Shown: in pieces, positions 2,809-54,783 of the stretch | How the letters are laid out: the number at the start of each line of letters is the position of its first letter | Numbering within the stretch: the stretch's first letter is position 1 | DNA from: Cyanidioschyzon merolae | Taxonomy: Eukaryota | Assembly: GCA_000091205.1 (NCBI GenBank) | Contig: AP006491.2 | Strand: one strand, 5' to 3' | DNA length: 64,000 bases | Program-made: the position numbers and the translations under genes | The notes under the pieces: model-generated | Seen by the model: the letters and a program-made list of their open reading frames with translations, nothing else | What the model was told of the DNA's origin: nothing | Databases searched by the model: none

Positions 2809-3372
2809 ATGGCGGAGCATCGAAAGCGCAAGCCGACGAAGTGTCTGCGGAATCTTCTCCTCACTGGAACTCCGGGAACCGGCAAATCTACAGTTGCTGC
2901 GAAGTTTTGTGCGAGAATGCGGTTGAACGTACCTGCAAACGACTGGCCTGTTCATATAAACGTCTCTGAACTGATCAAGGAGAACCCGTCGCGGTTCGCT
3001 GAGGAGTTTGATAGCGAACGCGACTGCTTCGTTATCAACGAAGACGCCGTAGTTGAGCACCTAGAGCCCATAGTGCAAAAGTGTAATGTGGTCTTAGAGC
3101 ACCATTCCAGTGACTGGTTCCCGGAACGCTGGTTTTCCCGAGTTGTGGTCCTGGCCAGCGCGACTGATGTACTGTATCGACGACTCGAGGCGAGAGGATA
3201 CACGACGGAAAAAGTGCAAGAAAACGTAGAAGCAGAAATCATGCAAGTTTGTGCAGATGAAGCGATGACGAGTTATGACCGCAAGATTGTTGACATTTAC
3301 GAGAACAATACTGAGGACGATATGGAGCGAATCGTAGGGAACCTCTGCGAATGGTGGTTGATCAGAAGTTGA
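2809..3372 (+). CDS. AK6: Adenylate kinase isoenzyme 6 (AK6/hCINAP/Fap7 family).
   Basis: ATG at 2809. P-loop LLTGTPGTGKST, then ...DWFPERWF...VLYRRLEARGYTTEKVQENVEAEIMQV, co-linear with AK6/Fap7 over the whole 187 aa. Confidence 0.8.
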   Translation: MAEHRKRKPTKCLRNLLLTGTPGTGKSTVAAKFCARMRLNVPANDWPVHINVSELIKENPSRFAEEFDSERDCFVINEDAVVEHLEPIVQKCNVVLEHHSSDWFPERWFSRVVVLASATDVLYRRLEARGYTTEKVQENVEAEIMQVCADEAMTSYDRKIVDIYENNTEDDMERIVGNLCEWWLIRS

Positions 3373-4687
3373 TCTGTCGACAAGCAGCAACCTGCTGCTC
3401 ACTCGGGCAATATGGGCACTTGAATCTTGTGTTGCCCCTGGGCAGGCGGTTCACTGTTTCTTTGCAGAGCACGTGGCCACAGGGGAGCAAGTACGGCGGA
3501 TTCGTTGGAGTGCTCTGCTCTCTGGAAACTGGGCAGACGAATATAGAGTGGTATTTGTACTTCTTGCCCAGGTCTATCTCAACAGGAAGTTCTTCCCGTT
3601 GTGTCCAGGATTCACGCGTTGCGAGCAGTCGAGTAGCGCGCATCAAAACTGGCAGTGCTATCGTTCCGCACGCAACAACGCTGTACAGGGGACTCTCCTC
3701 GCTTAGATCGAGATGTGCCCAGAAACAACGCCGAAAGGATTGCTCGGCGTCATCGGATAGCGCAGAGGTAAAAAATGAGGCATATGGAGATTTTGCGATA
3801 CGCGATACGAAGGCAAAGCAACCCATAAGTTGCTGAATTTCCTTAGTCTGGGAACGCTGGAAACGAGCAAAATGCTGGCGGGCGTATGCCAGGGCCTCTG
3901 GTAGTCGCCTTTCCTGTAGATAATTGACGAATCGCAAACGATGAAGTTTGAATTCCAGTTCACGTAGTTTTTCGGCAAGCGCTTGACGTCCAGCGTTCGT
4001 GGGTACAGACGGGGTAGCGCTGTGCGGTATGTATGTCGAGTCCTGCATCCTTTGCGCCGCTGAGCTCTCCGAGGCGCCGTCCTGGCTATCGCTGCTTCGC
4101 TCTATCCAGGAAGAGACCCGCTGTGTCCAGAGAATAGCAGGCTCAAGCGTTCCGTGGCGAATATCGTTCAAAATAGCGTACAAATCCCTGAAAGGGAGTC
4201 GATACGTGTCCTCAAAGCTTTGGCCGGACTCTCTAGCGAAGGAGTCCGCGATATCGAAGTGACCTTCTCGATAGAGGTGCTCACCGATTGCTCGTTCAAG
4301 AAGTGTTTTCTCCAGCGGTTGAACATTGCATAGTTGAGAGATCTGTGGGTCAAAACAATTTTCCCCGCTTTTCGTGTACTTGGTAATTGCAGCTTTCAAC
4401 TCCTTCTCTCGTACAGACAGAGTCTCGAAGAGAGCCAAAACTTGTTGCTGAAACTCTGCCAACAGCAACTTGCGTGCTTCTACAGATGTCGTAGGCGACA
4501 GTATGGCGACTTGGAAGCGATCCAGAGCATCCTTCAGGTTCTGGCACGCGTCAAAACTGGAGCCCGAAAGTTTCTTCTGTTTCGCGACCAGCCGCACCAG
4601 GTCCGCCGCAACACTCACAAGTCCAGCGCCGCGTTCTTTTGGCAACTGGCCGCTCATCAGAGCCTGTGATGTCTCGGTGCCAGACAT
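3362..4687 (-). CDS. GID/CTLH-complex RING-like E3 subunit (RMD5/MAEA homolog). The ORF track starts at 4846 with a non-ATG codon; the first in-frame ATG is at 4687.
   Basis: C-terminal degenerate RING: FVCPVSREQSTPTNPPYLLPCGHVLCKETVNRLPRGNTRFKCPYCP, matching the RMD5/MAEA-type RING. Upstream is a helical LisH/CTLH/CRA-like region. The 3' end overlaps the AK6 3' end by 11 bp, convergent. Confidence 0.6.
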   Translation of the reverse strand: MSGTETSQALMSGQLPKERGAGLVSVAADLVRLVAKQKKLSGSSFDACQNLKDALDRFQVAILSPTTSVEARKLLLAEFQQQVLALFETLSVREKELKAAITKYTKSGENCFDPQISQLCNVQPLEKTLLERAIGEHLYREGHFDIADSFARESGQSFEDTYRLPFRDLYAILNDIRHGTLEPAILWTQRVSSWIERSSDSQDGASESSAAQRMQDSTYIPHSATPSVPTNAGRQALAEKLRELEFKLHRLRFVNYLQERRLPEALAYARQHFARFQRSQTKEIQQLMGCFAFVSRIAKSPYASFFTSALSDDAEQSFRRCFWAHLDLSEESPLYSVVACGTIALPVLMRATRLLATRESWTQREELPVEIDLGKKYKYHSIFVCPVSREQSTPTNPPYLLPCGHVLCKETVNRLPRGNTRFKCPYCPSEQQVAACRQINF

Positions 4688-6155
4688 GTCGCCTCCTGGG
4701 GGCCTTTTCCACAAGCGCCGACACGAGAGTAACGACCTCGTATACCAGCACAGGAACCGTTCCAGGACACGCACTCGATCTGCTTCGTCTGTTGATGAGT
4801 CGCAGTCGATCGCGGCCGTCGCCCCTGTTGCGGCCCCCAGCAGCAAAGGCGACAGCAGCAGCGTCGTGAAACAATACCGAGAGACGTCCCAGCGGGTATC
4901 AGTTGTTACTCCCCGAAATTACCATAGGAAATATGGCGCTGAAATATGCGGAAAAGAAAGCATCACGGTTGGCGCGACTTTTTCTGTCCGTGCTGACGCC
5001 CTGTTAAGCTTGGATGTTCATCGGAAGGGGCGCTGTGCTCCAGTAGATTCATGTTGCAGCGCTGCGGCTGTTGTATCTCTTTCCGAGAGATAAGATGTGG
5101 AAATTCTCGTTATGTGCCGCTCTTGTGCACTGAACATGCGTCTTGAAACTTGGCAATACATTGCCTTGGCTCGTGGGAGAGTGCATGCATTAGACGCCTT
5201 CAGCCGTGGTCAGTGCATGTCGATGGTGCCGTGGTGACTGGGAGCAATCCGCCATGGTGGCTGATAATTGCGCAAAACCCCGCTCAATACGGAGCAAAAT
5301 ACGTCTGGCGCTCGAATCCGCACCGTCACCACAGATATAGAGCCCGTTGGCAACAAGCGAGTCGCGATTATGTCCCACGTTTGGACTTGGTTGCATCGCG
5401 CCTGCGGTTAATGTGCATGCTTGCAGCTATTGCCGCGTTTGCGCCGGGCATGCGTGCCCGCCTGAGGCTTCCCCTCGTTATGCATTTCCAAAGCGCACTC
5501 GGGATTGCGCAGCTGCTACTTCAAGCACACACGAGCCCGAGGACGGCCGCCGCCATAGCATAGAGAAGTACCGCTGTTCGTGAATGCCGCCAGAGAGGTC
5601 CCCGAATGCAGCCTCTCTTCTGAACGAGGATTACTGTTCGGGAAGTCCAAAAGGATGCTCCTCTTGGGGGCTTGTATCGAGCGTTCGCAAGATTTCTCCT
5701 GACACGCGCTCGGAGGACAGCAATGCAACACCGGCCCGAGTGGTCAGCGATCTTTCAACTCCGGGGGCACTTTCGCTCTACCTACCAAACTGTCGATGGT
5801 CTGGACGCATGAATAAGCTGCTAGATTCCGGACTTTACGACGCAAAACAACAGGTTTGCGTCATGGTACAGAGGTGCGCCCTCGGTAGAGGTGCCTGAAG
5901 GACCCATTCCATGCCAGGCTGAACACCAGAACGATACGGCGCAGAAACAACCATCACGCGTTCAGATGATGCTGGTTAGATTCAGGAAGCCAGAAGTACC
6001 CACATCTGGGAAGCGGCTTGAGCTCCTTTGGACAGAGCTGCGTATGCTTTACTGGCAAGTGGGTCAATTAGAGTCCAGCCGAGCCAGTGACTCTCCAGCA
6101 GGACGTGCACACGATGCTGATTTCCGGTTTGTCGGTACGCGTTACATTCAAAGCA

Positions 6156-8560
6156 GTACGTTCTAGGATATCTTTACAAGCACACCCTCTTTTATTCTCT
6201 TCGCGCAGGTATTCACCAAGAGGAACGTATCTCGTGGATCGGAGAAAGATCGCGGAAATGCTTTATGCTGTGACTGCCAGCTTCCGACACACGGCCTTAC
6301 TTGCTCAAGTCAGTTGTTCTACGGTGAGCTGGTACATGGGCCGCACTCCTCATACTACTTATTCTGCGTTCTGGACATCACGACGGAAACGACCAAACTC
6401 GGTACACAAAATTGTCTCCCAGTCAATCCAATCCACTCCATACGTGCTCTCGGAAACGTTCCTAACGAACCAACAGGATGTGTAGCTTCCGTGCCCTCGA
6501 TACCAATGGCCACCAAGAGACACGGATGGACAGAGCAAAAAGCGCTCTTCTTCGGGAGACCGTCGTGCGTTGAATAACGTGCTACCGATCTCATGCTGTA
6601 ACGCGCACGGTTAGTACAGAACGGGCCGGTCTCCGTTTCACTCGATGAGGTATCATCCGAGCGAAATGGTCGACCTCGATATGGGTGCTCAAACAGCGGA
6701 TCACCGCTGGTCGTAAATATGGCACAGGCGCGTACGGTGACAACATGCGCCTCGCCCCCGGATTCAGTTGGGATCGCCCTCAAATCACCAAACAGACAGG
6801 ATCGTTCAATGGTCCATTTCCTCATCGAAGCGGTTCGTGAGCTCCCAGTACCGAATTCTTCTGCACTGCTCTTCGGCAGTGCCGCTTTTCCATCGGTCAA
6901 ACGCGGTCAGAGCGTATGCAATTGAGATTGGCGTTGAGCTGTCCCTCGTTCCAACTTAGGCTCTTTGGTTGCACCCAGCCGAAGGCGACTTCTGTTTCGT
7001 CAAACGCCGTCTCTACTTTCACGGATCCATAGACGCTTCGTTTGCATCCGCAACACCGTCCTACGACGACTCGTTCTCTTGCTTCACCAGGCCTGAACCG
7101 CACTCCCGCTTCTCCGATCGCGTGTGAAACCAAGGGGGCGGACAGGTGCACTACGGTGCGTGAGCGTGCCCGCGACAGAGCAGGTGAGGAAGAGCGCTCG
7201 AAGACTTGGAGATACATACACAGAAAACGCAAGTCTCAGTGCCGGCGGCCATCCAGTGCCTCTGAACCCCGAGGAAGAAAAGCGGGCATGCGATATAGGG
7301 TCCACGTCTATAGCACCGCGCCAACATTAGGAGATGGAGAAAATTCCGTTGGTTACAGAACAGCAGAATCCGTATGACAAGAGGACCCGGGAGGGCACCA
7401 GGGGGGAATTATCCGAGGGTCAAGATCACACTGAATATCCATTTGCCCACACTTTGTGAAACGGAGGCTTGAATCGAGCAAAGAGGGTGCTTTGCGACAG
7501 TTCAACCGAGAGAAGGAGACAAGCGTCGTGGCGGGTGTGAATCTCCGGTCTATCAACCTCAAGGACATCGCCGTACCTCTGGGTGAAGCGCTCAGACGCT
7601 ACGAAGTGAATGGAAAGCACATGAGGCTGCTCAAGTTTTTCCATGGCTCTGTGTTATCTGGAGTCGGGCGTGATGGACGCCAGGCGGCATGCCAGCGGGT
7701 GGAATAGCGGCGTCAGACCCGATGATGGCGCTCTGAGCACCTGAACGAGTTGAGCGGGATGCGTTGTGCGCGCCACTCACAGAGCGTACAAGAGCGTGTA
7801 TCTGGCTCATGTGGGCTATCCCTGGCAGGTTTCCATGAGACCGCATTGAGATCGCCAACCAGCGCGGTGCGATGAAACCACGAGCGCGCACCAGCTCACT
7901 TCTTCAATGGAGAGCAGAGGGAGATGATCGACAATTCGCGTCGTTTGGCGGTAGCCTGTGGCGCTCGACGCGCAGTGCTGCGCACAGGCTGTACTCCCGT
8001 GCCTTCGACGGCGGCGTGCAACGAGTGCACGAGTCGATTCTGCACTATTGCTGTCAATGCGAACAGGGCGATGTACGCGCATCACAGGCAGGGGTGCACG
8101 CTGGAGCTGGTAGAGAGGAACAGCGTAGAAGCGTGTCGGATGCACGGGCTGGTCAACGGCAAACTGACCGGGCGTCAGTTGACGAGGCCATCGAAGATAG
8201 GAGACTTGCTATGCCGCGGCTCGATCCGCAACAAGTGCACATGCACTTGCTGCACCCAGACCTGAGCGCCTCGATCAACTTACGGAAATGCCGGGAGCGT
8301 TCGGAGCGTCCCGCGGCATTGTGTCGAGCGAACTCTTGAGGGAATCCTTTAGTGCTCAGTGGAGGTATTGTGCTGGGAAGCTGATGCGTTGCAATGAATA
8401 TGAATCGGTGGTCAGGTGGGCGGGCATTGGATATCTGCCCTGGGCGAGTCGCTGGTGTAGCACGGGTCAGCGAACCGGAAAGGCTGGAGCACTACAAAGA
8501 TGTATGTAATGGGAACCTTCTCCTGGGCAATTGGTGAACGATAGAGGTGTTATATCATTG
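6156..8560. repeat. Right arm of the ~2.4 kb inverted repeat (partner of 25..2428).
   Basis: Same evidence as the left arm. ORFs 6087..6485+, 6355..6900-, 6897..7232-, 7042..7377+ and 7872..8339+ mirror left-arm ORFs at ~99% amino-acid identity. Confidence 0.85.
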
Positions 8561-10281: not shown

Positions 10282-11706
10282 ATGAAGGTTCCATTCTGGC
10301 TATTTGCACTTATGGTTGCTTTGGTTTCGTTCAACGGGTGCAATATAGCGAAACCCGCTCAGTCTTGCCTTGGCTCGGGGCTCGCAGGCTGCTCGGCGCA
10401 GTTGTATTCTGGGAACCGGAAGGGTTGGTTCAGCGTATCCGGCTCCGTACAGGATACAATATTTACTCAGAATGAGCTTGCATCAAGCTTGGAGAGACTC
10501 GTCAGCCACATAATAGAACCTTTCCGAAATGCAACAGCGGAGGAGCTTCGCCACAGACTACGCACACTGTTCGAGCGCAAGACGTATCGCGTAACCCCGA
10601 ACGGTGCACGCAAAGCCGAAGGTTGTGTCGTCTGGTCGTGGCAGGGAGGAAACCTTACGTTCAACGCACCGACAGAGACGGAAACGATGATGCACCGCAC
10701 GAAACCTTTCTGGTACAATCGCTTACGCTGGACGTGGGAGCTGTTTGAAGCGATAAAAATGCCCAGAGACGACTTTGAGATAGCGCAGTGCCTGCATGAC
10801 TGTGTTCAGACTGTTCGAAAGGAGCCGCAGTTCGCCAAAATGCCTCGGTATCCCGAACCTGGACCGATTCCAATTCTCAGTCTCATCCAGTGCTGCGGCA
10901 TTAGCGATGATATTCCCGCACCAGTTTTTGAATCTGGCAGACCTGGCCCGAGAACGATTTTCTCAACTGGTCTTCGCGACTGGGATGTTGCTTGCGCGCT
11001 CCAAGCTGCTTCTGCTTTACCGTGGGCGTTTAGACTGCCCAAGGCAGTCTTCCGCGGCTCCGCTCGAGAATCTCTAGAGGAAACCAGACTTGCGACCGTC
11101 TCTGGGCGGAGAGGAATCCACGGACGCAGAGGGTCGAACGCGTATGGCCGGCGAGCCCTGGCAGAGCATGGCCGCCGACACCCAGCATTGCTGGATGTAC
11201 TTGTCACAGAATCCGGGGGCAACAGAAGTGCCGGCGGCTTTATGTCTGTCCGGAAGTTGGTGAACTACCGCTACTCTGTGCATGCTGAAGGCAACTGTGG
11301 CTGGGCAGACCGCTTATGGTGGCAGCTACACGCTCCGCAAGTGCTGCTAAAGCAGCGATCACCGTGCGGTCTGTACTTCGAACCCCTGATGAAGCCATAC
11401 AGAGATCACATCCCTGTCTCTGGGTCATTTGACGACCTCAGTCGCAAAGTAAAGTGGCTCCAGCGCCACGAGTCGGATGCTCTCGTAATGGCGACGAATG
11501 CAATGAGATTCGCGGAGGCGTACCTCGTTAGACGGAGCATACTCAAATACTTTGAGATGGTCCTAAACCAGTACGCACAAATTTGGCGACATCATTCTTA
11601 TGGAGATCGCGGGCACTTCCAATCAGGAGGTGGTGGCGCTGAATGCCTTCGACCTCGTTTCGACTTTTGGTTCTTAGAAGAAAAAAGGGATGCAGATGCG
11701 GGATAG
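10282..11706 (+). CDS. Secreted GT90-family glycosyltransferase (CAP10/POGLUT/KDELC-like).
   Basis: ATG at 10282. N-terminal signal peptide MKVPFWLFALMVALVSFNGC. The C-terminal half (WADRLWWQLHAPQVLLKQRSPCGLYFEPLMKPYRDHIPVS...FDDLSRKVKWLQRHESDALVMATNAMRFAEAYL) follows the conserved GT90/CAP10 domain pattern. Confidence 0.55.
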   Translation: MKVPFWLFALMVALVSFNGCNIAKPAQSCLGSGLAGCSAQLYSGNRKGWFSVSGSVQDTIFTQNELASSLERLVSHIIEPFRNATAEELRHRLRTLFERKTYRVTPNGARKAEGCVVWSWQGGNLTFNAPTETETMMHRTKPFWYNRLRWTWELFEAIKMPRDDFEIAQCLHDCVQTVRKEPQFAKMPRYPEPGPIPILSLIQCCGISDDIPAPVFESGRPGPRTIFSTGLRDWDVACALQAASALPWAFRLPKAVFRGSARESLEETRLATVSGRRGIHGRRGSNAYGRRALAEHGRRHPALLDVLVTESGGNRSAGGFMSVRKLVNYRYSVHAEGNCGWADRLWWQLHAPQVLLKQRSPCGLYFEPLMKPYRDHIPVSGSFDDLSRKVKWLQRHESDALVMATNAMRFAEAYLVRRSILKYFEMVLNQYAQIWRHHSYGDRGHFQSGGGGAECLRPRFDFWFLEEKRDADAG

Positions 11707-12593: not shown

Positions 12594-12989
12594 CTACGTG
12601 CAGGTCGCTACCCCCGTAAAAGTCGAGGTTGTCGTACCACCTGTTCCACAGGTAAAGCGGTACAGCAACCGACCTGCTTCCGCGCACTCGAGCACCAAGT
12701 TTCCATTCCCAGTCGTACCGGACGCACGAAGGAGTTCATTCAGATCAAACCGAGTAGTTTGTGAACGAATAGTCGCCAGGTTTTGGTCGTTCTGTTCCAA
12801 TGCAGACACGTGCGCCCGGAGTTGGGAAACAACAGCCCGCAACTCTGCGTTCTCAGCTGACGCTTTCCGCACAGCAACATCTAAAGAACTAGCCACCGTG
12901 CCAAAGCAGGTCCCGAAAGATCCTACAAAAAGACTTATCCCAATAAGTATGACGAGAGCCTGCCAAGGCTTGAGACTGAAAGTTTGCAT
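12594..12989 (-). CDS. Small type-II membrane/coiled-coil protein, paralog A of a divergent pair (hypothetical). Start taken at MQTFSL..., ATG at 12989.
   Basis: TM anchor (WQALVILIGISLFVGSFG), a coiled-coil segment, and a C-terminal ECAEAGRLLYRFTCG...TGVATC motif shared with the plus-strand neighbour. Confidence 0.4.
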   Translation of the reverse strand: MQTFSLKPWQALVILIGISLFVGSFGTCFGTVASSLDVAVRKASAENAELRAVVSQLRAHVSALEQNDQNLATIRSQTTRFDLNELLRASGTTGNGNLVLECAEAGRLLYRFTCGTGGTTTSTFTGVATCT

Positions 12990-13277
12990 CTTCGAACAAT
13001 ACTTGTCTTTACAAAACAGAGTAGGAAAAAGAATTTTAATGAGATGCAAGCGGCGTAAAGGTGCGTGTTGCGCGCCGTCACGCGGAGCATCCGTTGATCC
13101 CAGTGTCACGAATCGACGACACCAGTGCAACAAACAAGCGACGGCGGCCGGCGGCAACAACACATATCGATGGAAAAATTGCCACTACGTGCTGGAGATC
13201 ACTGGAGGGATCGGATCGCATCGATCGATCCGTGTCTGCTCTGCTCACCATCGCATCTAGCGTTGTTTCTCTCAAAA

Positions 13278-13712
13278 ATGACGCAACGGAGTTACCACCT
13301 TACGCCAGTATTCGTATGCTGCTTCTGGATTATGGCGTGGTTCGTTTGCATATTTACGTTAGGAGCGGTGGAGGCTTTGGGACGCTTTTCTCTGGGAAGT
13401 ACAAGGGAGGGCGTGCTTGCGGCACTTGTAGAGGACAATATTCGCCTGCGAAATGAAGCACGCATTCTGCTCAACCGCTTGAACCACTTTGAGGCTTCGA
13501 ACAGGCGTCAGATTTTGGTTTCCCACGGCAGCGTGCCAGGAGTCTATCCGTATGGAGGTATTTTCAATACCACCGTGCGTGCGAGCACGGGCAGCGGCGG
13601 AGCGGCGACTTCCGTGATTGAGTGCGCCGCGACCGAGAGAGTCCTGTACCGTTTTTCATGCCCAGCAGACGTTGTAGCCGCCACGACGATGACCGGTGTG
13701 ATTGACTGTTAA
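13278..13712 (+). CDS. Small type-II membrane/coiled-coil protein, paralog B of the divergent pair (hypothetical). Start taken at MTQRSY..., ATG at 13278.
   Basis: TM anchor (VFVCCFWIMAWFVCIFTLGAV), a coiled-coil segment, and C-terminal ECAATERVLYRFSCP...TGVIDC. Same architecture and motif as paralog A, 288 bp apart, head-to-head. Confidence 0.4.
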   Translation: MTQRSYHLTPVFVCCFWIMAWFVCIFTLGAVEALGRFSLGSTREGVLAALVEDNIRLRNEARILLNRLNHFEASNRRQILVSHGSVPGVYPYGGIFNTTVRASTGSGGAATSVIECAATERVLYRFSCPADVVAATTMTGVIDC

Positions 13713-18485: not shown

Positions 18486-19876
18486 ACCAGATTCAAAGGG
18501 AACAAAAAGCCACTCATTCTAAGACTGAATTTCGTTCTTTCCGAGCTTTTTGTCAGATGAGCAGCCTCGACATCCGAAGTGCATCAGTAAGGGCACTGCG
18601 GATTCATGCAAAGCTTGAGGAGTTTCGGGGGTGTTTTCGGAGTGACCCCTTCGACGCTCTGCAGCCAGAATTCGTCCGTCATCGGTACCAGGACGATTCG
18701 CGACGGCCTCGAAGAAGGACCCCTAAACTAAGCGACGGCACCATTGAATTCACATGTACGAGACTCCAGGCCGCTCGTTTCCATGCGTTCAGGGTGTCCT
18801 ACTCACGCATGCCTCGCACGCTCGACCTTTCTGTTCCAGGGCAACTCGTAGGCACAACAACTCGCGCTCCTTCGTTGACGGGTAAGTAAATCGACTTTAT
18901 GCGTTGGCGGCATGCTCACAATATCATGCGCAAACTTCACCGAAATTCTCGCTTCGAAAAAATAGACTCCGTTCAAACGACACATCCGGCTCTCTTTGGA
19001 GCCAACTAGGCATCGGCTTTGCACAGAAGCAGTTTCCCGTCGACGGGGCATGCTCCCAGAGGCTCCCGGCTCTTGTCATCGGAAACCGGACTCGGGCTCG
19101 GGCTCGGACTTTAGTCATCGCGGAGGTCGCTTCTGGTACGGTCTGCATCACTGCCTTGGACGAGCGCAGCGGACATAGATCGAATTCTCTGGGCTTGTTC
19201 ACCAACCGGGATTTCCCTTCCTGGGCTTGTTCACCATCGACATCATCGCATGGCACAAGTCCACTGTCGACTGGGACAGCGTGCGTCTGCGTGTCCAGCG
19301 CGCAGGGCACTTGCCCAGCGCATGACCCCGAAGAAGCCCGTGATCGTCGAGTGCAGCACCGGTCGCGCAAAAGCATGAGGGCATCGAGGCGAGCGTTCTG
19401 TGCACGCTCACGGCATGTATCTGGCGCAGGAACAAGTGCTCAAGCAACACAGGGCCTCTTGTCTGAAGAGACTGCGTTGTAGTCACATGGGATCACCTGA
19501 TGACGCAGACAGGTCACCGCTGCAACAAGGCGCACAGCGTCTGTATACAACGAGGATGGAAATGGCAAACGCAGCGTAGATCGCAACCTTTGCGTGTGCT
19601 CGAAAGACGTCAACAACGAGCCGGAAGCGGCGAAATCGGGACTTGAGCGCTGCTATCAACATGGTTCGTCTGTCGGCACCTGAGCTGGTGGGAAAAAGAT
19701 AGACCAGCGCGTTTGAAGCTGGATAGCAGAGTTAGGAACAGTAAACACGTGCAGAGACATCCCGTAGCGGCTTGTGTTGATGATAGCGAGAAGGGACCCA
19801 AACCTGAGCGTGTACTTCCGTGTTAGATAAGTTGGCCCGTTCCGTTCTATTCTGACATAGTTGTAGAGGCTGCCCC
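18486..19876. repeat. Dispersed repeat family A, copy 1 (~1.39 kb). It is a direct repeat of 32856..34246.
   Basis: Identical ORFs appear at a constant +14370 offset (18904..19482 = 33274..33852; 19199..19486 = 33569..33856; 19610..19801 = 33980..34171). Boundaries were read from sequence divergence at both ends. An internal (GGACTCGG[G/A]CTCGG) microsatellite lies near 19085/33455. Confidence 0.85.
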
Positions 19877-28754: not shown

Positions 28755-29872
28755 GGTCGCTCGTAGTCGTTGCGGTATCTCCGAAAAGGAAGCAGACAGC
28801 GCCCAGATTCTGAACGGAAAACGAGTGACGCCGCTTAGTTTTTCCAGAGCTCATAATTCACGGGAGTCAGGTTCCATGGACAAGAGGAGTCATCCCCACA
28901 AATTGAATGACGGCATCAGGACCCGTTTTTGCGTGCCGAGCACCGTGCCGTGCAGAGGCGAATGCTCCGCACGCGGTTTTCAGAGCGTCCATGTGCGTGC
29001 GGACGACACTCAGCAAGCGAGCATGAGCATAATCATAAATATAAATAAGCTTGAGCACGAGCACGAGCACGAGCAAAAGCATGAGCATAATCATAAATAT
29101 AAATAAGCTTGAGCACGAGCTTGAGCTTGCACTGAGGCCGCCAACGATTTCGGTTGAACGGAGGCAAGCAGCGTGCACTCTCCTACTCTTTCACTGACTT
29201 GGCAACGTAACTGACCGATACTTCGCGTCGCGTGGTATGGTGGAGGTCGTGTATTGCGCGGCATGTTCTGTAGCACGCAATGGTTGCCCGCCTGCTCGCT
29301 CGATGGAGGCGCGCAACAAGTGGAGGCACCGATTCTGCTCGATTCTCGTTGATGCGCTCGGGACGGCATGTGTGCACGACGAGCACGAGTACACGCTGGA
29401 AAATATAGAGAGGAAGAGTGTGGAACGTTGATGGGCGCACGAGGTCTTGTGCGGGAAGTTTATCGAACGTCAGATGCCGAGCCAATCGCAGGCGTGATGC
29501 TCGCTATGATGCATCTCCATAAGCAAGGAGGCACGCGAGCACCCTCTGCACCACCGAGACGTCAACGCCTCGAAACAAGTCTGGAAATGTCTCGCGCTTG
29601 GGGACCATCCAACGACTGTGTGCTCGATGGAGCCTCCTGAGGGAGTCACTCTGCGCGCAGTGCGAGATTTGTGGTGAAACGCTGAGGAGCTCTGATGAAC
29701 AAGTCCGTGACCTGGAGAAAGGAGTTTTTTGATTCTCGCCTGGAGCAGAGCAGTGGTATTGAACTGTGCAGGAATGCAGAGAGCTCGGTATACCGCATAT
29801 TCAAGACCGCAACGGGTCTCCTGGGCAATTGTTGAAAGATAATGGTGGTCTGTTTGTCGATATCACAGAGTG
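28755..29872. repeat. Dispersed repeat family B, copy 1 (~1.1 kb). It is a direct repeat of 44915..46196 and contains a 2-unit minisatellite at ~29030..29135.
   Basis: Matching ORFs at +16150 to +16324 offset (28405..28854- N-terminus = 44807..45004-; 29183..29485- = 45507..45809-; 29237..29431+ = 45561..45755+). Boundaries were read from sequence divergence. Confidence 0.85.
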
Positions 29873-32855: not shown

Positions 32856-34246
32856 GTCAGGTTCAAAGGGAACAAAAAGCCACTCATTCTAAGACTGAAT
32901 TTCGTTCTTTCCGAGCTTTTTGTCAGATGAGCAGCCTCGACACCCGAAGTGCATCAGTAAGGACACTGCGGATTCATGCAAAGCTTGAGGAGTTTCGGGC
33001 GTGTTTCCGGAGTGACCCCTTCGACGCTCTGCAGCCAGAATTCGTCCGTCATCGGTACCAGGACGATTCGCGACGGCCTCGAAGAAGGACCCCTAAACTA
33101 AGCGACGGCACCATTGAATTCACATGTACGAGACTCCAGGCCGCTCGTTTCCATGCGTTCAGGGTGTCCTACTCACGCATGCCTCGCACGCTCGACCTTT
33201 CTGTTCCAGGGCAACTCGTAGGCACAACAACTCGCGCTCCTTCGTTGACGGGTAAGTAAATCGACTTTATGCGTTGGCGGCATGCTCACAAGATCATGCG
33301 CAAACTTCACCGAAATTCTCGCTTCGAAAAAATGGACTCCGTTCAAACGACACATCCGGCTCTCTTTGGAGCCATCTAGGCATCGGCTTTGCACAGAAGC
33401 AGTTTCCCGTCGACGGGGCATGCTCCCAGAGGCTCCCGGCTCTTGTCATCGGAAACCGGACTCGGACTCGGACTCGGACTTTAGTCATCGCGGAGGTCGC
33501 TTCTGGTACGGTCTGCATCACTGCCTTGGACGAGCGCAGCGGACATAGATCGAATTCTCTGGGCTTGTTCACCAACCGGGATTTCCCTTCCTGGGCTTGT
33601 TCACCATCGACATCATCGCATGGCACAAGTCCACTGTCGACTGGGACAGCGTGCGTCTGCGTGTCCAGCGCGCAGGGCACTTGCCCAGCGCATGACCCAG
33701 AAGAAGCCCGTGATCGTCGAGTGCAGCACCGGTCGCGCAAAAGCATGAGAGCATCGAGGCGAGCGTTCTGTGCACGCTCACGGCATGTATCTGGCGCAGG
33801 AACAAGTGCTCAAGCAACACAGGGCCTCTTGTCTGAAGAGACTGCGTTGTAGTCACGTGGGATCACCTGATGACGGAGACAGGTCACCGCTGCAACAAGG
33901 CGCACAGAGTCTGTATACAACGAGGATGGAAATGGCAAACGCAGCGTAGATCGCAACCTTTGCGTGTGCTCGAAAGACGTCAACAACGAGCCGGAAGCGG
34001 CGAAATCGGGACTTGAGCGCTGCTATCAACATGGTTCGTCTGTCGGCACCTGAGCTGGTGGGAAAAAGATAGACCAGCGCGTTTGAAGCTGGATAGCAGA
34101 GTTAGGAACAGTAAACACGTGCAGAGACATCCTGTAGCGGCTTGTGTTGATGATAGCGAGAAGGGACCCAAACCTGAGCGTGTACTTCTGTGTTAGATAA
34201 GTTGACCCGTTCCGTTCTATTCTGACATAGTTGTAGAGGCTGCCCA
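32856..34246. repeat. Dispersed repeat family A, copy 2.
   Basis: Same evidence as copy 1. Confidence 0.85.
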
Positions 34247-44817: not shown

Positions 44818-44914
44818 ACATGAAAGGAAACCACACTCGCGCTGGGACGAACACCGGACTTGAATTTTTTTGAACGGCAGCGATTGGCAGCGACTCGGCA
44901 GGCGCCGAACTCGT

Positions 44915-46196
44915 AGTCGTTGCGGTATCTCCGAAAAGGAAGCAGACAGCGCCCAGATTCTGAACGGAAAACGAGTGACGCCGCTTAGTTTTTCCAGAGC
45001 TCATAATTCACGGGAGTCAGGTTCCATGGACAAGAGGAGTCATCCCCACAAATTGAATGACGGCATCAGGACCCGTTTTTGCGTGCCGAGCACCGTGCCG
45101 TGCAGAGGCGAATGCTCCGCACGCGGTTTTCAGAGCGTCCATGTGCGTGCGGACGACACTCAGCAAGCGAGCATGAGCATAATCATAAATATAAATAAGC
45201 TTGAGCACGAGCACGAGCACGAGCATAATTCTAAATATAGACATAAGCACGAGCATGAGCATGAGCATAATCATAAATATAAATAGAAACATAAGCACGA
45301 GCACGAGCATAATTCTAAATATAGACATAAGCATGAGCGTGAGCATGAGCATAATCATAAATATAAATAGAAACATAAGCACGAGCACGAGCACGAGCAA
45401 AAGCATGAGCATAATCATAAATATAAATAAGCTTGAGCACGAGCTTGAGCTTGCACTGAGGCCGCCAACGATTTCGGTTGAACGGCGGCAAGCAGCGTGC
45501 ACTCTCCTACTCTTTCACTGACTTGGCAACGTAACTGACCGATACTGCGCGTCGCGTGGTATGGTGGTGGTCGTGTATTGCGCGGCATGTTCTGTAGCAC
45601 GCAATGGTTGCCCGCCTGCTCGCTCGATGGAGGCGCGCAACAAGTGGAGGCACCGATTCTGCTCGATTCTCGTCGATGCGCTCGGGACGGCATGTGTGCA
45701 CGACGAGCACGAGTACACGCTGGAAAATATAGAGAGGAAGAGTGTGGAACGTTGATGGGCGCACGAGGTCTTGTGCGGGAAGTTTATCGAACGTCAGATG
45801 CCGAGCCAATCGCAGGCGTGATGCTCGCTATGATGCATCTCCATGAGCAAGGAGGCACGCGAGCACCCTCTGCACCACCGAGACGTCAACGCCTCGAAAC
45901 AAGTCTGGAAATGTCTCGCGCTTGGGGACCATCCAACGACTGTGTGCTCGATGGAGCCTCCTGAGGGAGTCACTCTGCGCGCAGTGCGAGATTTGTGGTG
46001 AAACGCTGAGGAGCTCTGATGAACAAGTCCGTGACCTGGAGAAAGGAGTTTTTTGATTCTCGCCTGGAGCAGAGCGGTAGTATTGAACTGTGCAGGAATG
46101 CAGAGAGCTCGGTATACCGCATATTCAAGACCGGAACGGTTCTCCTGGGCAATTGTCGAAAGATAATGGTGGTCTGTTTGTCGATATCACCGAGTA
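44915..46196. repeat. Dispersed repeat family B, copy 2 (~1.28 kb), with the minisatellite expanded (~45170..45455, ~5 units of ~55-60 bp).
   Basis: Same evidence as copy 1. The extra ~174 bp relative to copy 1 lies entirely in the AT-rich/(CACGAG)n tandem array. Confidence 0.85.
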
Positions 46197-50898: not shown

Positions 50899-52509
50899 AT
50901 GCGTGAGCGCCTCCCCAGTCCAGGCCGTTCGGGAACGCCTGCGCTGCAGTCTACGCGTGGGCACGATTCGCTGCAGCGGCTGCGCGTTCGGCCGGCGAGT
51001 TTTTCACAAACTAGCAGTGCAGCCGACGTACCAACTAGTCCTTTAGTGCTACCACCACTCGTTGGTGGCATGCAGCAAGGTGTTTCGGATTTTGGAAGAG
51101 CCTCAACTGGTCGGGGCCCTCTGTCTAGTGACGCGCCGCCTCCAAGCAATCGAACCGTCGGAATAGGCGGATCCGAAGGGGTACAGAAAGGCGATGACGA
51201 GGGCCAGGACGGCTTTTTCATAGGTAACAACCTGTTTCTCGCAAAAGGCCTCACAACAGCCGCCGCTTTGGCGGACGAACAACTGACGGGCGCGGCGCCT
51301 AGCCGGCTGGGCCCCAGCGGAAACGGCGAAAATAACCCACTGACGCTGAGACGAACGCTTTCCTGTATAGAGATAGACCCGTTTGGAAAAGCACAAGTAC
51401 GCGTTTACACTCGAGAGGAACTCATTCGAGAGCTGCGTTCAGAGTCCGTTACCGGGAACACTGCGGTCGACGTGGTCGAGCTTGCCTTCATCCGAGGCGA
51501 TGCCCGCGAAGAGTCGCAAATGTCTGGCGCGCTGGATCTGGCGCCGGTGACTGGTGGAAATCGACGCACCAAGTCATCAAAATCGAAGAAGAGGACCAAG
51601 TACGGCCCGATCCAGTCTCGCGATCTACGGTTGTTGGACCCGGCGTTCAGTGTGGAGCCGGCCTTGCATGTACGCGATCACGTCATTCTCGCGGTTTTCG
51701 ATAATCATATCCGAGCTGCAATCCAGTCGCATCGCCTGTTTATTTTTGATCACGAGTCCAAAAGAGCGCGACGGGCTACTGAGTTCGTTGTGCAACGACT
51801 CTCCCGAGTGTCAGCCGAGGAGGCGGTGCCCTTTGAGTTCGTTGCGCTGGAGGCGCTTCTCATGGCCACTTGTGCGGACATAGAATGGATGATGAGAAAC
51901 GTGGAGCCATTAATTGAGCGTGAACTAGGAGTTCTTTCAAGAGATCTGCGACGGAGTAATATCGAACGGCTCCGGGTCGATGAGCGCAGGCTCTCTCTTC
52001 TGCTTTCCCGAGCGCGGAATTTCGAGCACCTGCTCGAGGACATCCTCGACGAGGACGAGGACATGAGCCACATGTACTTGACCGAAATGCGTTACCATCC
52101 GGAAAAGTATCGTCTTCCTACCGATCACGAAGATGTGGAGCTGTTGCTCGAGAACGCGCTGCAGACGGTGCAGAGTCAGGTTCGTCGATTGGAGCTGCTC
52201 GATGCCGGCATCAATAACCTTGAGGAGATTCTGGAAATCAAACTGGATATATCTCAGAATCGCATCTGGTCGTTTAATATTTTCGTGCACCTTTGCGTGG
52301 CGACATTCTTCTTAGCTGCAATACCTGCTGATTTTTTCGGAATGAACTTGCAAATACCGCCTGACAAGGATCCGAATGTATTCTGGCCGTGGTTGCTGGT
52401 TTTTGGATTGAATATGGGCTTGGCGGTGGCCTTCTTTTCGCTTGCCATGCTGTTTCTTAAGCGACGACGATTGCTCTTTGGTCTCTTTAAGCGCCATCCG
52501 AGTGACTAG
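50899..52509 (+). CDS. Mrs2/CorA-family Mg2+ transporter, paralog 1 (GMN type).
   Basis: ATG at 50899. Two C-terminal TM helices flank the signature FFGMNLQ (VHLCVATFFLAAIPADFFGMNLQIPP...LLVFGLNMGLAVAFFSLAMLFL). The upstream helical domain carries the DEDMSHMYLTEMR block shared with the neighbouring paralog. Confidence 0.75.
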   Translation: MRERLPSPGRSGTPALQSTRGHDSLQRLRVRPASFSQTSSAADVPTSPLVLPPLVGGMQQGVSDFGRASTGRGPLSSDAPPPSNRTVGIGGSEGVQKGDDEGQDGFFIGNNLFLAKGLTTAAALADEQLTGAAPSRLGPSGNGENNPLTLRRTLSCIEIDPFGKAQVRVYTREELIRELRSESVTGNTAVDVVELAFIRGDAREESQMSGALDLAPVTGGNRRTKSSKSKKRTKYGPIQSRDLRLLDPAFSVEPALHVRDHVILAVFDNHIRAAIQSHRLFIFDHESKRARRATEFVVQRLSRVSAEEAVPFEFVALEALLMATCADIEWMMRNVEPLIERELGVLSRDLRRSNIERLRVDERRLSLLLSRARNFEHLLEDILDEDEDMSHMYLTEMRYHPEKYRLPTDHEDVELLLENALQTVQSQVRRLELLDAGINNLEEILEIKLDISQNRIWSFNIFVHLCVATFFLAAIPADFFGMNLQIPPDKDPNVFWPWLLVFGLNMGLAVAFFSLAMLFLKRRRLLFGLFKRHPSD

Positions 52510-52668: not shown

Positions 52669-54783
52669 TCATACGGTAAGGATACCAACCCGCCGCGCCC
52701 ACCAAAACATACACAGAATCGTGAGCGGCACCGTGAATGCCGTGATTGCCACAAAGCCGATGAACCACGAAGCATTGGTGCCGTAGATCGGCAGTTGCAG
52801 ATTCATGCTAAAGAATCGATTCACAACACCAGCGCCAGCGAAGACACAGGTCAGGACGGTCATTAACACACTGATGCGCAAAAGGCGATTTCGCATCGAG
52901 TCCAGTTGCAGATCCACTAAACCCTCGGTATCATCGATGGTGGCACCGAGGAGCCGTGCTCGGCCCGCCAGATAGTCCAGCACCCGCAGGTACGACTCGA
53001 GCAGCTCCTCCACCTGTGTGTGGGCTTTTGTCGGGCGCTCAGTGTCGGGGTGCTTCCGCATTTCGGTTAAATACATTCGAGCCATATCTTCGTCCTCGCT
53101 GAGCAGGTCTTGGAGCGCGTCTCGCACTCCGTCTACTCGAGATGAAAAGTTGCTCAACATTTGCTTCAAATAGAGCATTTCTTCCAGCTTCCTGCCGCTG
53201 ATCTTGTGTGTCAACTCATTCAGGAGGCGCGTGAGACTCGGCTCGATACACGCGAGATCTCGTTCGAGTGCGACGCACACCTCGATCAAAACGGATTCCA
53301 GCGCGTGAAGTTCAAAGGGAATCTCCTGTTCCTCATCACTCTGGGCAGCGATGAGCCGCTCTTCGATGGATCGGGCACTCTGACGCACACTCTGATCATT
53401 GGGATTGAAGAGCAACATATGATCAGCGAAAATGACGGCGCGCAGATGCGCAAGACTCACAATGATCACATGTCGCCGTACGAGAATAACGGGCCGCGGT
53501 TTTGTGGTCGGATGGATTTGTCTCAGGTCGCGGCTTTGAAGGATACCACGCAGCTCAGCCTGGAGCTTTCTGCGTTCCTTCTTGCGCTGTCGCCATACCG
53601 CGTGATGAAGCGTCTCTTCGGACTGGGAGTCTGCTGGAATGCAGTTGGCGCTGCTCGGTGCACGGATCTGATCGTTCGCCCGCGCTGCCGCCAGAATCTC
53701 TGTTGTGGTGATTTTCTCAACCGTGGCATGTCCGTTAAACCCAAACCGGAAACAAAGCAATGTGTTCAGGGCGCGTTTTGGTTTCTTTTGCTCGGCAGGA
53801 GTGTGTTGTCCAAATCCGGCGTATGGTGTTGTCGCGATGGGTTCCGGCGCCTGGCCCCGAGCACGCCCGCTAGGGCGCAACGTCGGTGGCTGCGGAAACT
53901 CCTCATCGTGGCTGTCGCGGTGCTCAGGAGACACGTTTTCCGCACTCGAGGGCAGCGCGCCTTGTCTACGCTCACTTACAGGCGAATCCTCCGCACGGCC
54001 AGAATCTCTGTACAAGTCCCGCTCGTTCGTTGTAAGCGCTCCGTGCAGGTTCGTCTCGTGTTCGGGTCCGGAACTACTGCTAGGTTCAGCGTTGTCTGGG
54101 CGTTCGCGTGTGTGCAAGCTATCCGGGGTCGCGCGTTGCGTCGCACGCTGCAACAAAAGTTGGTTGCGAATCGACTGCTGAAAGAGTTCCAGAGTCTGGT
54201 TTCGAGATCGGAGGCCCTCGAGCGCACCGCTCGAAAGAGAACGTCGGAAATTCGTTTCCTTCGACGAGTACAGTCCCGACTCTGGAGCAGGCTCGAAAGG
54301 TTCCGCGGCAACTGGTGGCGGGCCAGTCTCGAGCAGGGGCGAAGAACCCGCCACCGCCACCGTCACCGCGGACTCCCGAGCGTTCGCCTCGCTCTCGGAG
54401 CAAGGTGGCGCCGGGTGCAAAATCGTCTCATCGTCCAGGCCTTCAGAAGCGTTTAGCGGTAGAATGGGAACTCCACCGTCGCTTTCAGAGTCTGACGCTT
54501 CCATGTTGCCGAGGCGCGAGCAGCGTGTGCCCGAATGCCAACCTCGATGCGCCAGCAGCCTTGCATAGCCGCATTTGGAGCAGGGGCAATGGAGCGGGCG
54601 CGAGGGCCGGGCATGTAGACGAAGCTGCATATTTTGGGACTCTGTGGACAGGGTAGCATACAGCTGATCGTTCTGCTGCGGCACGACAGCGTTGCTGGAC
54701 TTGTGAGCACTGGGCCTTAGGCAAACAGCGCTATGCGCATGCACGTGGGTGCACAGCACCGCAAACCCATGAAAAGACTCCAT
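52669..54783 (-). CDS. Mrs2/CorA-family transporter, paralog 2, with the signature altered to SMN.
   Basis: ATG at 54783. C-terminal ...LMTVLTCVFAGAGVVNRFFSMNLQLPIYGTNASWFIGFVAITAFTVPLTIL. It is co-linear with paralog 1 (DEDMARMYLTEMR; LHALESVLIEV ~ FVALEALLMAT). The Ser codon AGC was read directly on the minus strand at ~52805..52807. The true start may be an internal ATG, since the N-terminus is low complexity. Confidence 0.65.
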   Translation of the reverse strand: MESFHGFAVLCTHVHAHSAVCLRPSAHKSSNAVVPQQNDQLYATLSTESQNMQLRLHARPSRPLHCPCSKCGYARLLAHRGWHSGTRCSRLGNMEASDSESDGGVPILPLNASEGLDDETILHPAPPCSESEANARESAVTVAVAGSSPLLETGPPPVAAEPFEPAPESGLYSSKETNFRRSLSSGALEGLRSRNQTLELFQQSIRNQLLLQRATQRATPDSLHTRERPDNAEPSSSSGPEHETNLHGALTTNERDLYRDSGRAEDSPVSERRQGALPSSAENVSPEHRDSHDEEFPQPPTLRPSGRARGQAPEPIATTPYAGFGQHTPAEQKKPKRALNTLLCFRFGFNGHATVEKITTTEILAAARANDQIRAPSSANCIPADSQSEETLHHAVWRQRKKERRKLQAELRGILQSRDLRQIHPTTKPRPVILVRRHVIIVSLAHLRAVIFADHMLLFNPNDQSVRQSARSIEERLIAAQSDEEQEIPFELHALESVLIEVCVALERDLACIEPSLTRLLNELTHKISGRKLEEMLYLKQMLSNFSSRVDGVRDALQDLLSEDEDMARMYLTEMRKHPDTERPTKAHTQVEELLESYLRVLDYLAGRARLLGATIDDTEGLVDLQLDSMRNRLLRISVLMTVLTCVFAGAGVVNRFFSMNLQLPIYGTNASWFIGFVAITAFTVPLTILCMFWWARRVGILTV

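Follow-up and report, generated by a model that had tools for sequence, protein, structure and literature searches.

A divergent pair of diploid-biased paralogs in Cyanidioschyzon merolae: candidate heterodimeric proteins of the diploid wall or matrix

Collectins and tetranectin are oligomers in which a coiled-coil neck is followed by a C-terminal head, and yeast Aga2 is a small subunit of the cell wall that is held there by disulfides. Here we describe two small proteins of Cyanidioschyzon merolae that recall both. They are encoded head to head at positions 12594-13712 of a 64,000-nucleotide stretch of contig AP006491.2 (hereafter the window), and we refer to them as A (minus strand) and B (plus strand). 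Their order of putative signal peptide, coiled coil and head is like that of the neck-plus-head oligomers, and, as in Aga2, a disulfide may link them to a partner at the surface. Both comparisons are architectural analogies. Foldseek and a PDB profile search detected no sequence or fold relationship, and the head of A and B is just about 45 residues long.

The other comparison comes from the life cycle. In Cyanidiales the diploids are cell-walled and the haploids wall-less (Hirooka et al., 2026; PMC13353863). These algae have been genetically tractable as a sexual model only since 2022-2026, and the composition of their cellulose-free, protein-rich diploid wall is little known. According to an older study, cited in PMC13353863, of a Cyanidium caldarium strain whose number was not recorded, the wall is 50-55% protein. 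About 3% of Cyanidiococcus genes are diploid-predominant, and the diploid-specific secretory proteins include FAS1-domain, lysyl oxidase (LOX) and TFF-like proteins (PMC13353863). These share with A and B entry into the secretory pathway and a diploid bias in several genera, and LOX, like the A/B family, is distributed without Galdieria. Unlike them, A and B are much smaller, form a bidirectional paralog pair and have no domain in common with them: Pfam finds no FAS1, LOX, TFF-like, Hog or cupin domain in A, B or their orthologs. From our own reading of Data Set S8 of the same study, the cupin-family protein CMA024C is also diploid-specific and secretory.

We propose, with a probability of about 0.5, that A and B are co-regulated diploid-phase secretory proteins that likely join through a zipper and disulfides into a heterodimer of the diploid wall or matrix. 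The pair stands among the strongly diploid-predominant genes (the 3%, a figure from Cyanidiococcus). It is abundant in transcripts, conserved in three genera and without known homologs, which makes it a well-defined and cheap wall or matrix candidate. Specialists on the walls and life cycles of red algae should find it moderately interesting; otherwise it is an ordinary orphan family of secreted proteins.

A conserved pair of paralogs

Gene A occupies 12594-12989 on the minus strand, with its ATG at 12989 and its stop codon at 12594-12596. The product of this open reading frame (ORF), 131 amino acids (aa) plus stop, is identical in sequence to CYME_CMI166C of C. merolae 10D (BAM80047.1, 'hypothetical protein'). 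Gene B occupies 13278-13712 on the plus strand (ATG at 13278, stop codon at 13710-13712; 144 aa plus stop). The start codons, the ORF lengths and the spacer of 288 bp between the genes (12990-13277) all agree with an earlier note on this DNA, made without database searches.

The GenBank annotation of strain 10D lacks gene B; its protein has no NCBI accession, and the identical sequence occurs solely in Logan/JGI (Joint Genome Institute) assemblies. A gene called CMX068C, without a GenBank accession, is placed between CMI166C and CMI167C in Data Set S8 of Hirooka et al. (2026; PMC13353863), whose re-annotation added 219 genes; we take CMX068C to be one of these. Because the plus-strand ORF is the sole one that fits the gap between CMI166C and CMI167C, we equate the two.

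That CMI166C and gene B are true paralogs is confirmed. Pairwise BLASTP gives 43% identity across the last 49 residues (E = 3e-9), and in tblastn searches of the 64-kb window each protein matches just the other (E = 5.6e-7), with no further paralogs there. The shared columns, V-x-E-C-A...R-h-L-Y-R-F-x-C...T-G-V-x-x-C, are invariant in nine sequences from four to five lineages. The earlier note had asked whether the similarity might be confined to low-complexity Thr/Gly stretches. It lies outside the Ser/Thr/Gly stretches and sits in the Cys block, and the divergent paralogous pair that was claimed is real.

Searched exhaustively with a profile hidden Markov model (HMM), 1.84 billion representative proteins yielded six family matches, one long coiled-coil protein and five bacterial repeat proteins. 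The named family matches come from Cyanidioschyzon, Cyanidiococcus and Cyanidium caldarium and the rest are metagenome or read-assembly sequences; none of the family matches is labelled as Galdieria or another red alga. The gene order GT90, A (minus), B (plus), DUF1499, MutL recurs beyond C. merolae. The divergent A/B pair lies between GT90 and DUF1499 on a JGI metagenome contig, in two assemblies of Cyanidiococcus yangmingshanensis, on a Logan contig and on a 65%-GC Cyanidium-like contig, and the orthologs of CMI166C in Cyanidiococcus-like genomes are 60-66% identical to it. The restriction of the family to Cyanidiales is firm; the family is uncharacterised and has two members per genome. The pattern of a secreted or surface gene family had been suggested for the pair. 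The lineage-specific and secretory parts of that suggestion stand, but the family is not an expanding one, with exactly two members in each genome, both of them conserved.

In the two C. yangmingshanensis assemblies (GCA_026122185.1 and GCA_013995675.1) the ortholog of gene B is an intact but unannotated ORF (5285-5890, minus strand, on L002). One of the two genes is therefore missing from the GenBank annotation of this species as well as from that of strain 10D. A further member, P0008, on a contig of 1479 bp assembled from SRR31152685 (L005), is an Ala-rich A-type protein that has diverged strongly, being 35-43% identical to the other A sequences. Its gene model has a long N-terminal extension, and the protein hints at more unsampled diversity in the family.

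Identity between A-type and B-type sequences is 24-34%, against 35-77% within one type, and both types are found in every lineage examined. Since identity is lower across types than within them, the inverted duplication predates the split of the genera. A local duplication had been proposed earlier; the inverted duplicate pair holds up, but by these comparisons its origin is ancient, not recent. Among orthologs, the proportion of nonsynonymous differences (pN) is 0.19-0.35 and that of synonymous differences (pS) is 0.65-0.84, synonymous sites being saturated or nearly so. The ratio of the two substitution rates (dN/dS) in the closest ortholog pairs is about 0.14-0.15. These values indicate that both genes are under purifying selection.

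The small size of the ORFs and the lack of a GenBank annotation for gene B might raise the thought that there is no real gene pair here, merely chance ORFs or chance similarity. That reading is refuted by the BLASTP score, by orthologs in at least four lineages with pN far below pS, and by transcript levels of hundreds of transcripts per million (TPM).

Diploid-biased expression and the shared spacer

Expression values are from published RNA-seq, given as TPM triplicates in Data Sets S8 and S9 of Hirooka et al. (2026, Plant Cell; PMC13353863). The main text of that paper mentions neither CMI166C nor CMX068C, and a full-text search of a paper library turned up none that names CMI166C, CMX068C or BAM80047. 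CMI166C stands at 301, 299 and 309 TPM in diploids, and in haploids at 25, 19 and 37 (MS1 Ha3) and 8, 13 and 17 (10D), for log fold changes (logFC) of 3.7 and 4.8. The corresponding values for CMX068C are 631, 564 and 637 in diploids and 18, 18 and 14 (MS1 Ha3) and 4, 5 and 6 (10D) in haploids (logFC 5.5 and 7.1). Cyanidium shows the same bias in the ortholog of A, g253 (about 770 TPM in diploids, about 5 in haploids; logFC 7.6), and in the ortholog of B, g254, which adjoins it (about 810 and about 13 TPM; logFC 6.3). The flanking genes behave otherwise. The GT90 gene CMI165C stands at 94, 105 and 103 TPM in diploids and at 72-75 and 71-72 in the two haploids (logFC 0.7 and 0.7), and the DUF1499 gene CMI167C at 34, 34 and 39 in diploids and 59-67 and 29-32 in haploids (logFC -0.5 and +0.4) (all PMC13353863).

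In walled diploids both genes thus exceed their level in wall-less haploids 13- to 140-fold, whereas the flanking genes are flat. Expression of both genes, which the earlier note had left to RNA-seq, is thereby confirmed at hundreds of TPM in diploids. As the pair is diploid-biased and its flanks are not, phase-specific control is local to the pair, which points to the shared 288-bp spacer (12990-13277) as a bidirectional promoter. We infer that A and B would be co-expressed from this one control region, specifically in the walled diploid phase. Patches of the spacer are conserved with Cyanidiococcus-like loci, e.g., GTSACGMATCGACG and TCGCATC...CGATCCG. The spacers of four lineages share no conserved palindromes, and a scan for sigma-70 promoters and terminators found nothing, though such a scan is not applicable to a eukaryote. 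As a compact candidate for a bidirectional, phase-specific promoter, the spacer could serve as a genetic tool. CMI165C, CMI166C and CMI167C do not occur in three supplementary files of Mikulski et al. (2017) on H3K27me3 targets in 10D; the lists in these files may be incomplete, and their silence is uninformative.

Phase-specific expression, small size, a secretory signal and conserved Cys would also suit secreted signalling ligands, that is, a small disulfide-bonded dimer whose release by diploids would tell of their phase, of their density or of the start of meiosis and haploid formation. The switch from diploid to haploid is environmentally triggered and its signals are unknown. However, 300-800 TPM in steadily proliferating diploids suits an abundant constituent better; no receptor link or processing sites are evident, and conservation in the proteins is highest in an oligomerisation zipper and a beta module rather than in a short peptide. 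We regard a signalling role as rather improbable.

N-terminus, zipper and cysteine module

The N-terminal hydrophobic segment claimed earlier is present in all nine sequences: one or a few basic residues are followed by an uncharged run of 19-31 residues, whose best 19-residue Kyte-Doolittle mean is 1.95-2.94. In A (residues 1-33; 12891-12989, minus strand) the run is 29 residues long with a mean of 2.24, and cleavage is possible after T-V-A. In B (residues 1-33; 13278-13376, plus strand) it is 27 residues long with a mean of 2.36, and cleavage is possible after A-V-E-A. A small-x-small site (CEA, AEA, VRA, VGA, GDA or TVA) lies just past the run in every sequence, the hydrophobic segment of the A orthologs closing with VCEA or VGA. 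The layout of n-, h- and c-regions with AxA-like sites is thus seen in nine of nine sequences. Whether it serves as signal peptide or anchor, a hydrophobic N-terminus of this kind leaves the C-terminal part luminal or extracellular, and entry of A and B into the secretory pathway is supported. The signal would take each protein into the endoplasmic reticulum (ER) and is likely cleaved.

Published predictions are divided. SignalP-5 gives both Cyanidium orthologs as SP(Sec/SPI) with no transmembrane (TM) segment, and it gives no signal peptide for CMI166C or CMX068C; Phobius assigns one TM segment to CMX068C and none to CMI166C (PMC13353863). The long runs of the C. merolae proteins, together with the negative SignalP-5 calls, make an uncleaved anchor possible. 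In that case A and B would be type II membrane-anchored surface proteins, with a zipper stalk displaying the Cys module on the plasma membrane of diploids; they might, for instance, tether the membrane to the wall or be a surface receptor or an adhesin. The 27-29 uncharged residues have positive charges on their N-terminal side only, and in the AlphaFold2 models one helix runs unbroken through the hydrophobic segment and into the zipper, which would agree with an anchor, as does the Phobius call for CMX068C. But the calls for the Cyanidium orthologs and for CMI166C go the other way, the small-x-small motif directly follows the hydrophobic core throughout, and the segment is the least conserved part of the proteins and varies in length, as is typical of signal peptides. 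We consider the type II arrangement the main rival, possible but doubtful. When the earlier note called the proteins membrane-anchored, the hydrophobic N-terminus was well seen, whereas the anchor itself is put in doubt by the predictions for Cyanidium and by the sites in every ortholog; the TM and signal-peptide predictors to which the note had looked are, as just described, at odds.

The GenBank model of a Cyanidium caldarium member, KAK4534193.1 (102 aa), has no signal peptide, and the 146-aa ORF of a closely related contig has one.

After the N-terminal segment comes a leucine-zipper-like coiled coil, corresponding to the heptad-like helical stretch of the earlier note. In A it covers residues 40-64 (12798-12872, minus strand), with V40, N47, V54 and V61 at a positions and A43, L50, L57 and L64 at d positions. 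In B it covers residues 47-71 (13416-13490, plus strand), with L47, N54, A61 and L68 at a and L50, L57, L64 and F71 at d. A single register of 3.5 heptads fits all nine sequences (a = V/L, N, V/A, V/L; d = L/A, L, L, F/L), and the Asn at a is kept in eight of them. Parallel dimeric zippers with their chains in register classically carry such an Asn. AlphaFold2 models a helix over residues 7-78 of A and 8-74 of B, in the latter with a predicted local distance difference test (pLDDT) score of up to 82-88 in parts. A sequence profile search of the PDB gives nothing significant (best E 0.012, a coiled coil). Its non-significant matches on the zipper stretch (E >= 0.012) are mostly to short coiled coils, among them GCN4, Jun, C/EBP, VBP, NUDEL, lamin and Lpp.

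In parallel dimeric coiled coils, a residue at g pairs with the residue at e' of the partner chain, five positions on (i to i'+5). In both types of sequence the g1 (D/E) and e2 (R/Q/H) residues are alike and would attract in any dimer combination. The g2/e3 positions differ by type: they are E and L in four of four B sequences, and V/I/L and R in five of five A sequences. An A/B dimer alone would bring E opposite R, and V/I opposite L, which argues for a heterodimer; A and B probably zip together as a parallel one, if this pattern is a fair guide.

In their a/d pattern of three to four heptads, where d is Leu and one a position holds a conserved Asn, A and B are like the dimeric zippers of GCN4, Jun and C/EBP, and as in these the g/e charges could set the choice of partner. 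Unlike them, A and B have no basic DNA-binding region, and the N-terminal secretory signal would put their zipper outside the cytosol. The likeness is best read as an analogy of mechanism, not homology. A basic leucine-zipper (bZIP) transcription factor does not fit: there is no Pfam match, and a hydrophobic signal and then neutral or acidic residues precede the zipper.

The g1-e2 pairs would be attractive in homodimers as well, and as the whole region is syntenic the adjacency of the two genes says little. A and B might then be independent homodimers, their adjacency a relic of duplication, or else proteins of the ER, the Golgi or the vacuole, as an internal compartment that diploids remodel. 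Such readings are unlikely. The pair is tightly co-regulated and its neighbours are not, the complementary g2/e3 residues that speak against homodimers are conserved in all lineages, and the proteins end in ...TCT or ...IDC rather than in a retrieval motif of the KDEL/HDEL type, as would befit an internal compartment.

A variable linker rich in Ser, Thr and Gly joins the zipper to the C-terminal module of about 45 residues, which holds the invariant columns: residues 88-131 in A (R88 ... C102, C114, C130; 12597-12728, minus strand) and 101-144 in B (R101 ... C116, C128, C144; 13578-13709, plus strand). Counted from the C-terminus, the three Cys are at -30, -18 and -2 in five of five A-type sequences and at -29, -17 and -1 in four of four B-type sequences; in every member the remaining Cys are all within the N-terminal hydrophobic segment. 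Three Cys per chain suggest at least one intermolecular disulfide. The AlphaFold2 model of the module has four short strands in A (pLDDT about 65) and strands at low pLDDT in B, three to four strands overall, and linker confidence is below 50.

No recognisable family had been seen from the sequence, and the searches agree. Pfam and NCBIfam return sub-threshold noise alone for A, B and their orthologs (DUF2576, Rab11-FIP3, LegC2/C7, DUF3084, DUF6491). Of the fold searches proposed earlier, the PDB profile search gave no more than the coiled coils already listed, and Foldseek against the PDB found no match at E <= 0.001.

One resemblance alone is a non-trivial lead. The core of the module, x-G/E-R-h-L-Y-R-F-x-C/G-x-x-G/D, resembles the first half of the bacterial GloVer repeat (TIGR03803, 'choice-of-anchor tandem repeat GloVer-containing protein'), S-G-x-E-R-V-L-Y-R-F-K-G-G-x-D-G. 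With hhalign the family aligns to GloVer at 91% probability and a score of 32 over 20 columns (A-x-x-G/E-R-h-L-Y-R-F-x-C-x-x-G), where 40 column shuffles score at most 14 and reversed profiles 9-10. GloVer proteins, besides the long coiled-coil protein, are the sole non-family matches below E = 1e-3 in the profile HMM search (E = 2e-5 to 3e-4, summed over many repeats), and, of the nine family sequences, eight reach 8-16 bits with an HMM made from GloVer units. GloVer proteins are extracellular, as A and B would be. They carry 6-10 tandem units of about 50 residues each, whereas A and B have one partial unit each; the second half of the unit (L-h-x-x-N-G-x-L-Y-G-T-T) is missing from A and B, and the three Cys are not a GloVer feature.

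Membership in the GloVer family was rejected: TIGR03803, whose cutoff is 44 bits, does not match A or B at E <= 0.1, the motif is present in a single copy and there is no tandem array, whereas the bacterial proteins P0012, P0013 and P0015 score 167-303 bits against it. The aligned stretch of 20 columns is too short to separate homology from convergence, so the likeness may reflect either the transfer of one blade or convergence, and is a lead rather than a classification. If transfer were the answer, one may picture a heterodimeric wall protein specific to Cyanidiales whose module came from one GloVer blade by horizontal transfer and was fused to a eukaryotic signal peptide and zipper. Oligomerisation would then rebuild a multi-blade beta structure, and the protein would be a key block or organiser of the diploid wall. 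We think this version improbable.

In the proposal that we prefer, that of a secreted heterodimer in the diploid wall or matrix, the mature chain would have about 100-110 residues and consist of the parallel 3.5-heptad zipper with its buried Asn, the linker and a beta-rich three-Cys module. The odd number of Cys per chain would be met by disulfides between the chains or to partners in the wall. The A/B complex would serve the structure or the assembly of the protein-rich wall or extracellular matrix that diploid cells alone produce. Apart from this proposal, the reality, paralogy, conservation and architecture of the genes are shown, as are their co-regulation and diploid bias.

A number of points weigh against this proposal. 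The diploid bias fits a wall role without proving one, and haploid expression of the pair is low, not zero. The identity of gene B with CMX068C was assigned through the gene order of a table, not published coordinates. SignalP-5 is negative for both C. merolae proteins, and their hydrophobic runs are long. The zipper is short, and the g/e pairing argument is a rule of thumb applied to sequence alone. The AlphaFold2 models (run with 6 sequences for A and 9 for B) are of low confidence, with a mean pLDDT of 64 for A and 58 for B, which makes fold assignment unreliable; the Foldseek result, no match at E <= 0.001, was itself obtained with a query model of pLDDT 64.

Neighbouring genes and other features of the window

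The window has about 54% GC, is nearly intron-free and carries housekeeping genes on both strands, including those for DNA polymerase alpha, a MutL homolog and RHD3/Sey1; Rfam and tRNA scans of it were empty. The neighbours of the pair follow the order of chromosome 9: CMI164C (CTLH-RING), CMI165C (GT90), CMI166C, CMX068C, CMI167C (DUF1499), CMI169C (MutL) and, farther away, CMI176C (Pol alpha).

CMI165C (10282-11706, plus strand) encodes a glycosyltransferase of the GT90 family (POGLUT/KDELC-like, with a signal peptide) and is mildly diploid-biased (logFC 0.7); in Cyanidium a second GT90 paralog is strongly haploid-biased (logFC -4.0). A functional link between A/B and the adjoining GT90 was considered and set aside: the POGLUT-type sequon C-x-S-x-P/A-C is absent, and because the whole region is syntenic the adjacency is uninformative. 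A Cyanidium-like contig (L006) has two extra Gly_transf_sug genes between MutL and DUF1499 and a fasciclin gene nearby.

Repeats are found elsewhere in the window. An inverted repeat of 2.4 kb (24-2437 and 6146-8560; 98-99% identical) surrounds a 3.7-kb segment that holds an AAA_18 kinase-like gene (2809-3372, plus strand) and a CTLH-RING gene (3362-4846, minus strand), and it has the look of either an inverted duplication of recent date or a segment that can invert. Dispersed direct repeats of 97-100% identity form two families, one pairing 18488-19500 with 32858-33900, the other 28760-29338 with 44910-45662. The first carries same-sized pairs of ORFs (192 and 150 aa) without a Pfam match. 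Both families probably belong to the interspersed repeats of C. merolae.

Between 22000 and 26000 lies a GC-rich island (63-67% GC vs. about 54% elsewhere) with several long overlapping ORFs on both strands, in which the sole domain match is a weak V-SNARE_C; the island may represent a repeat, or else a gene of biased composition. Finally, the window contains a second local pair of paralogs, genes for MRS2/CorA-like Mg2+ transporters at 50899-52509 (plus strand) and 52669-54783 (minus strand), which are arranged tail to tail, 160 bp apart.

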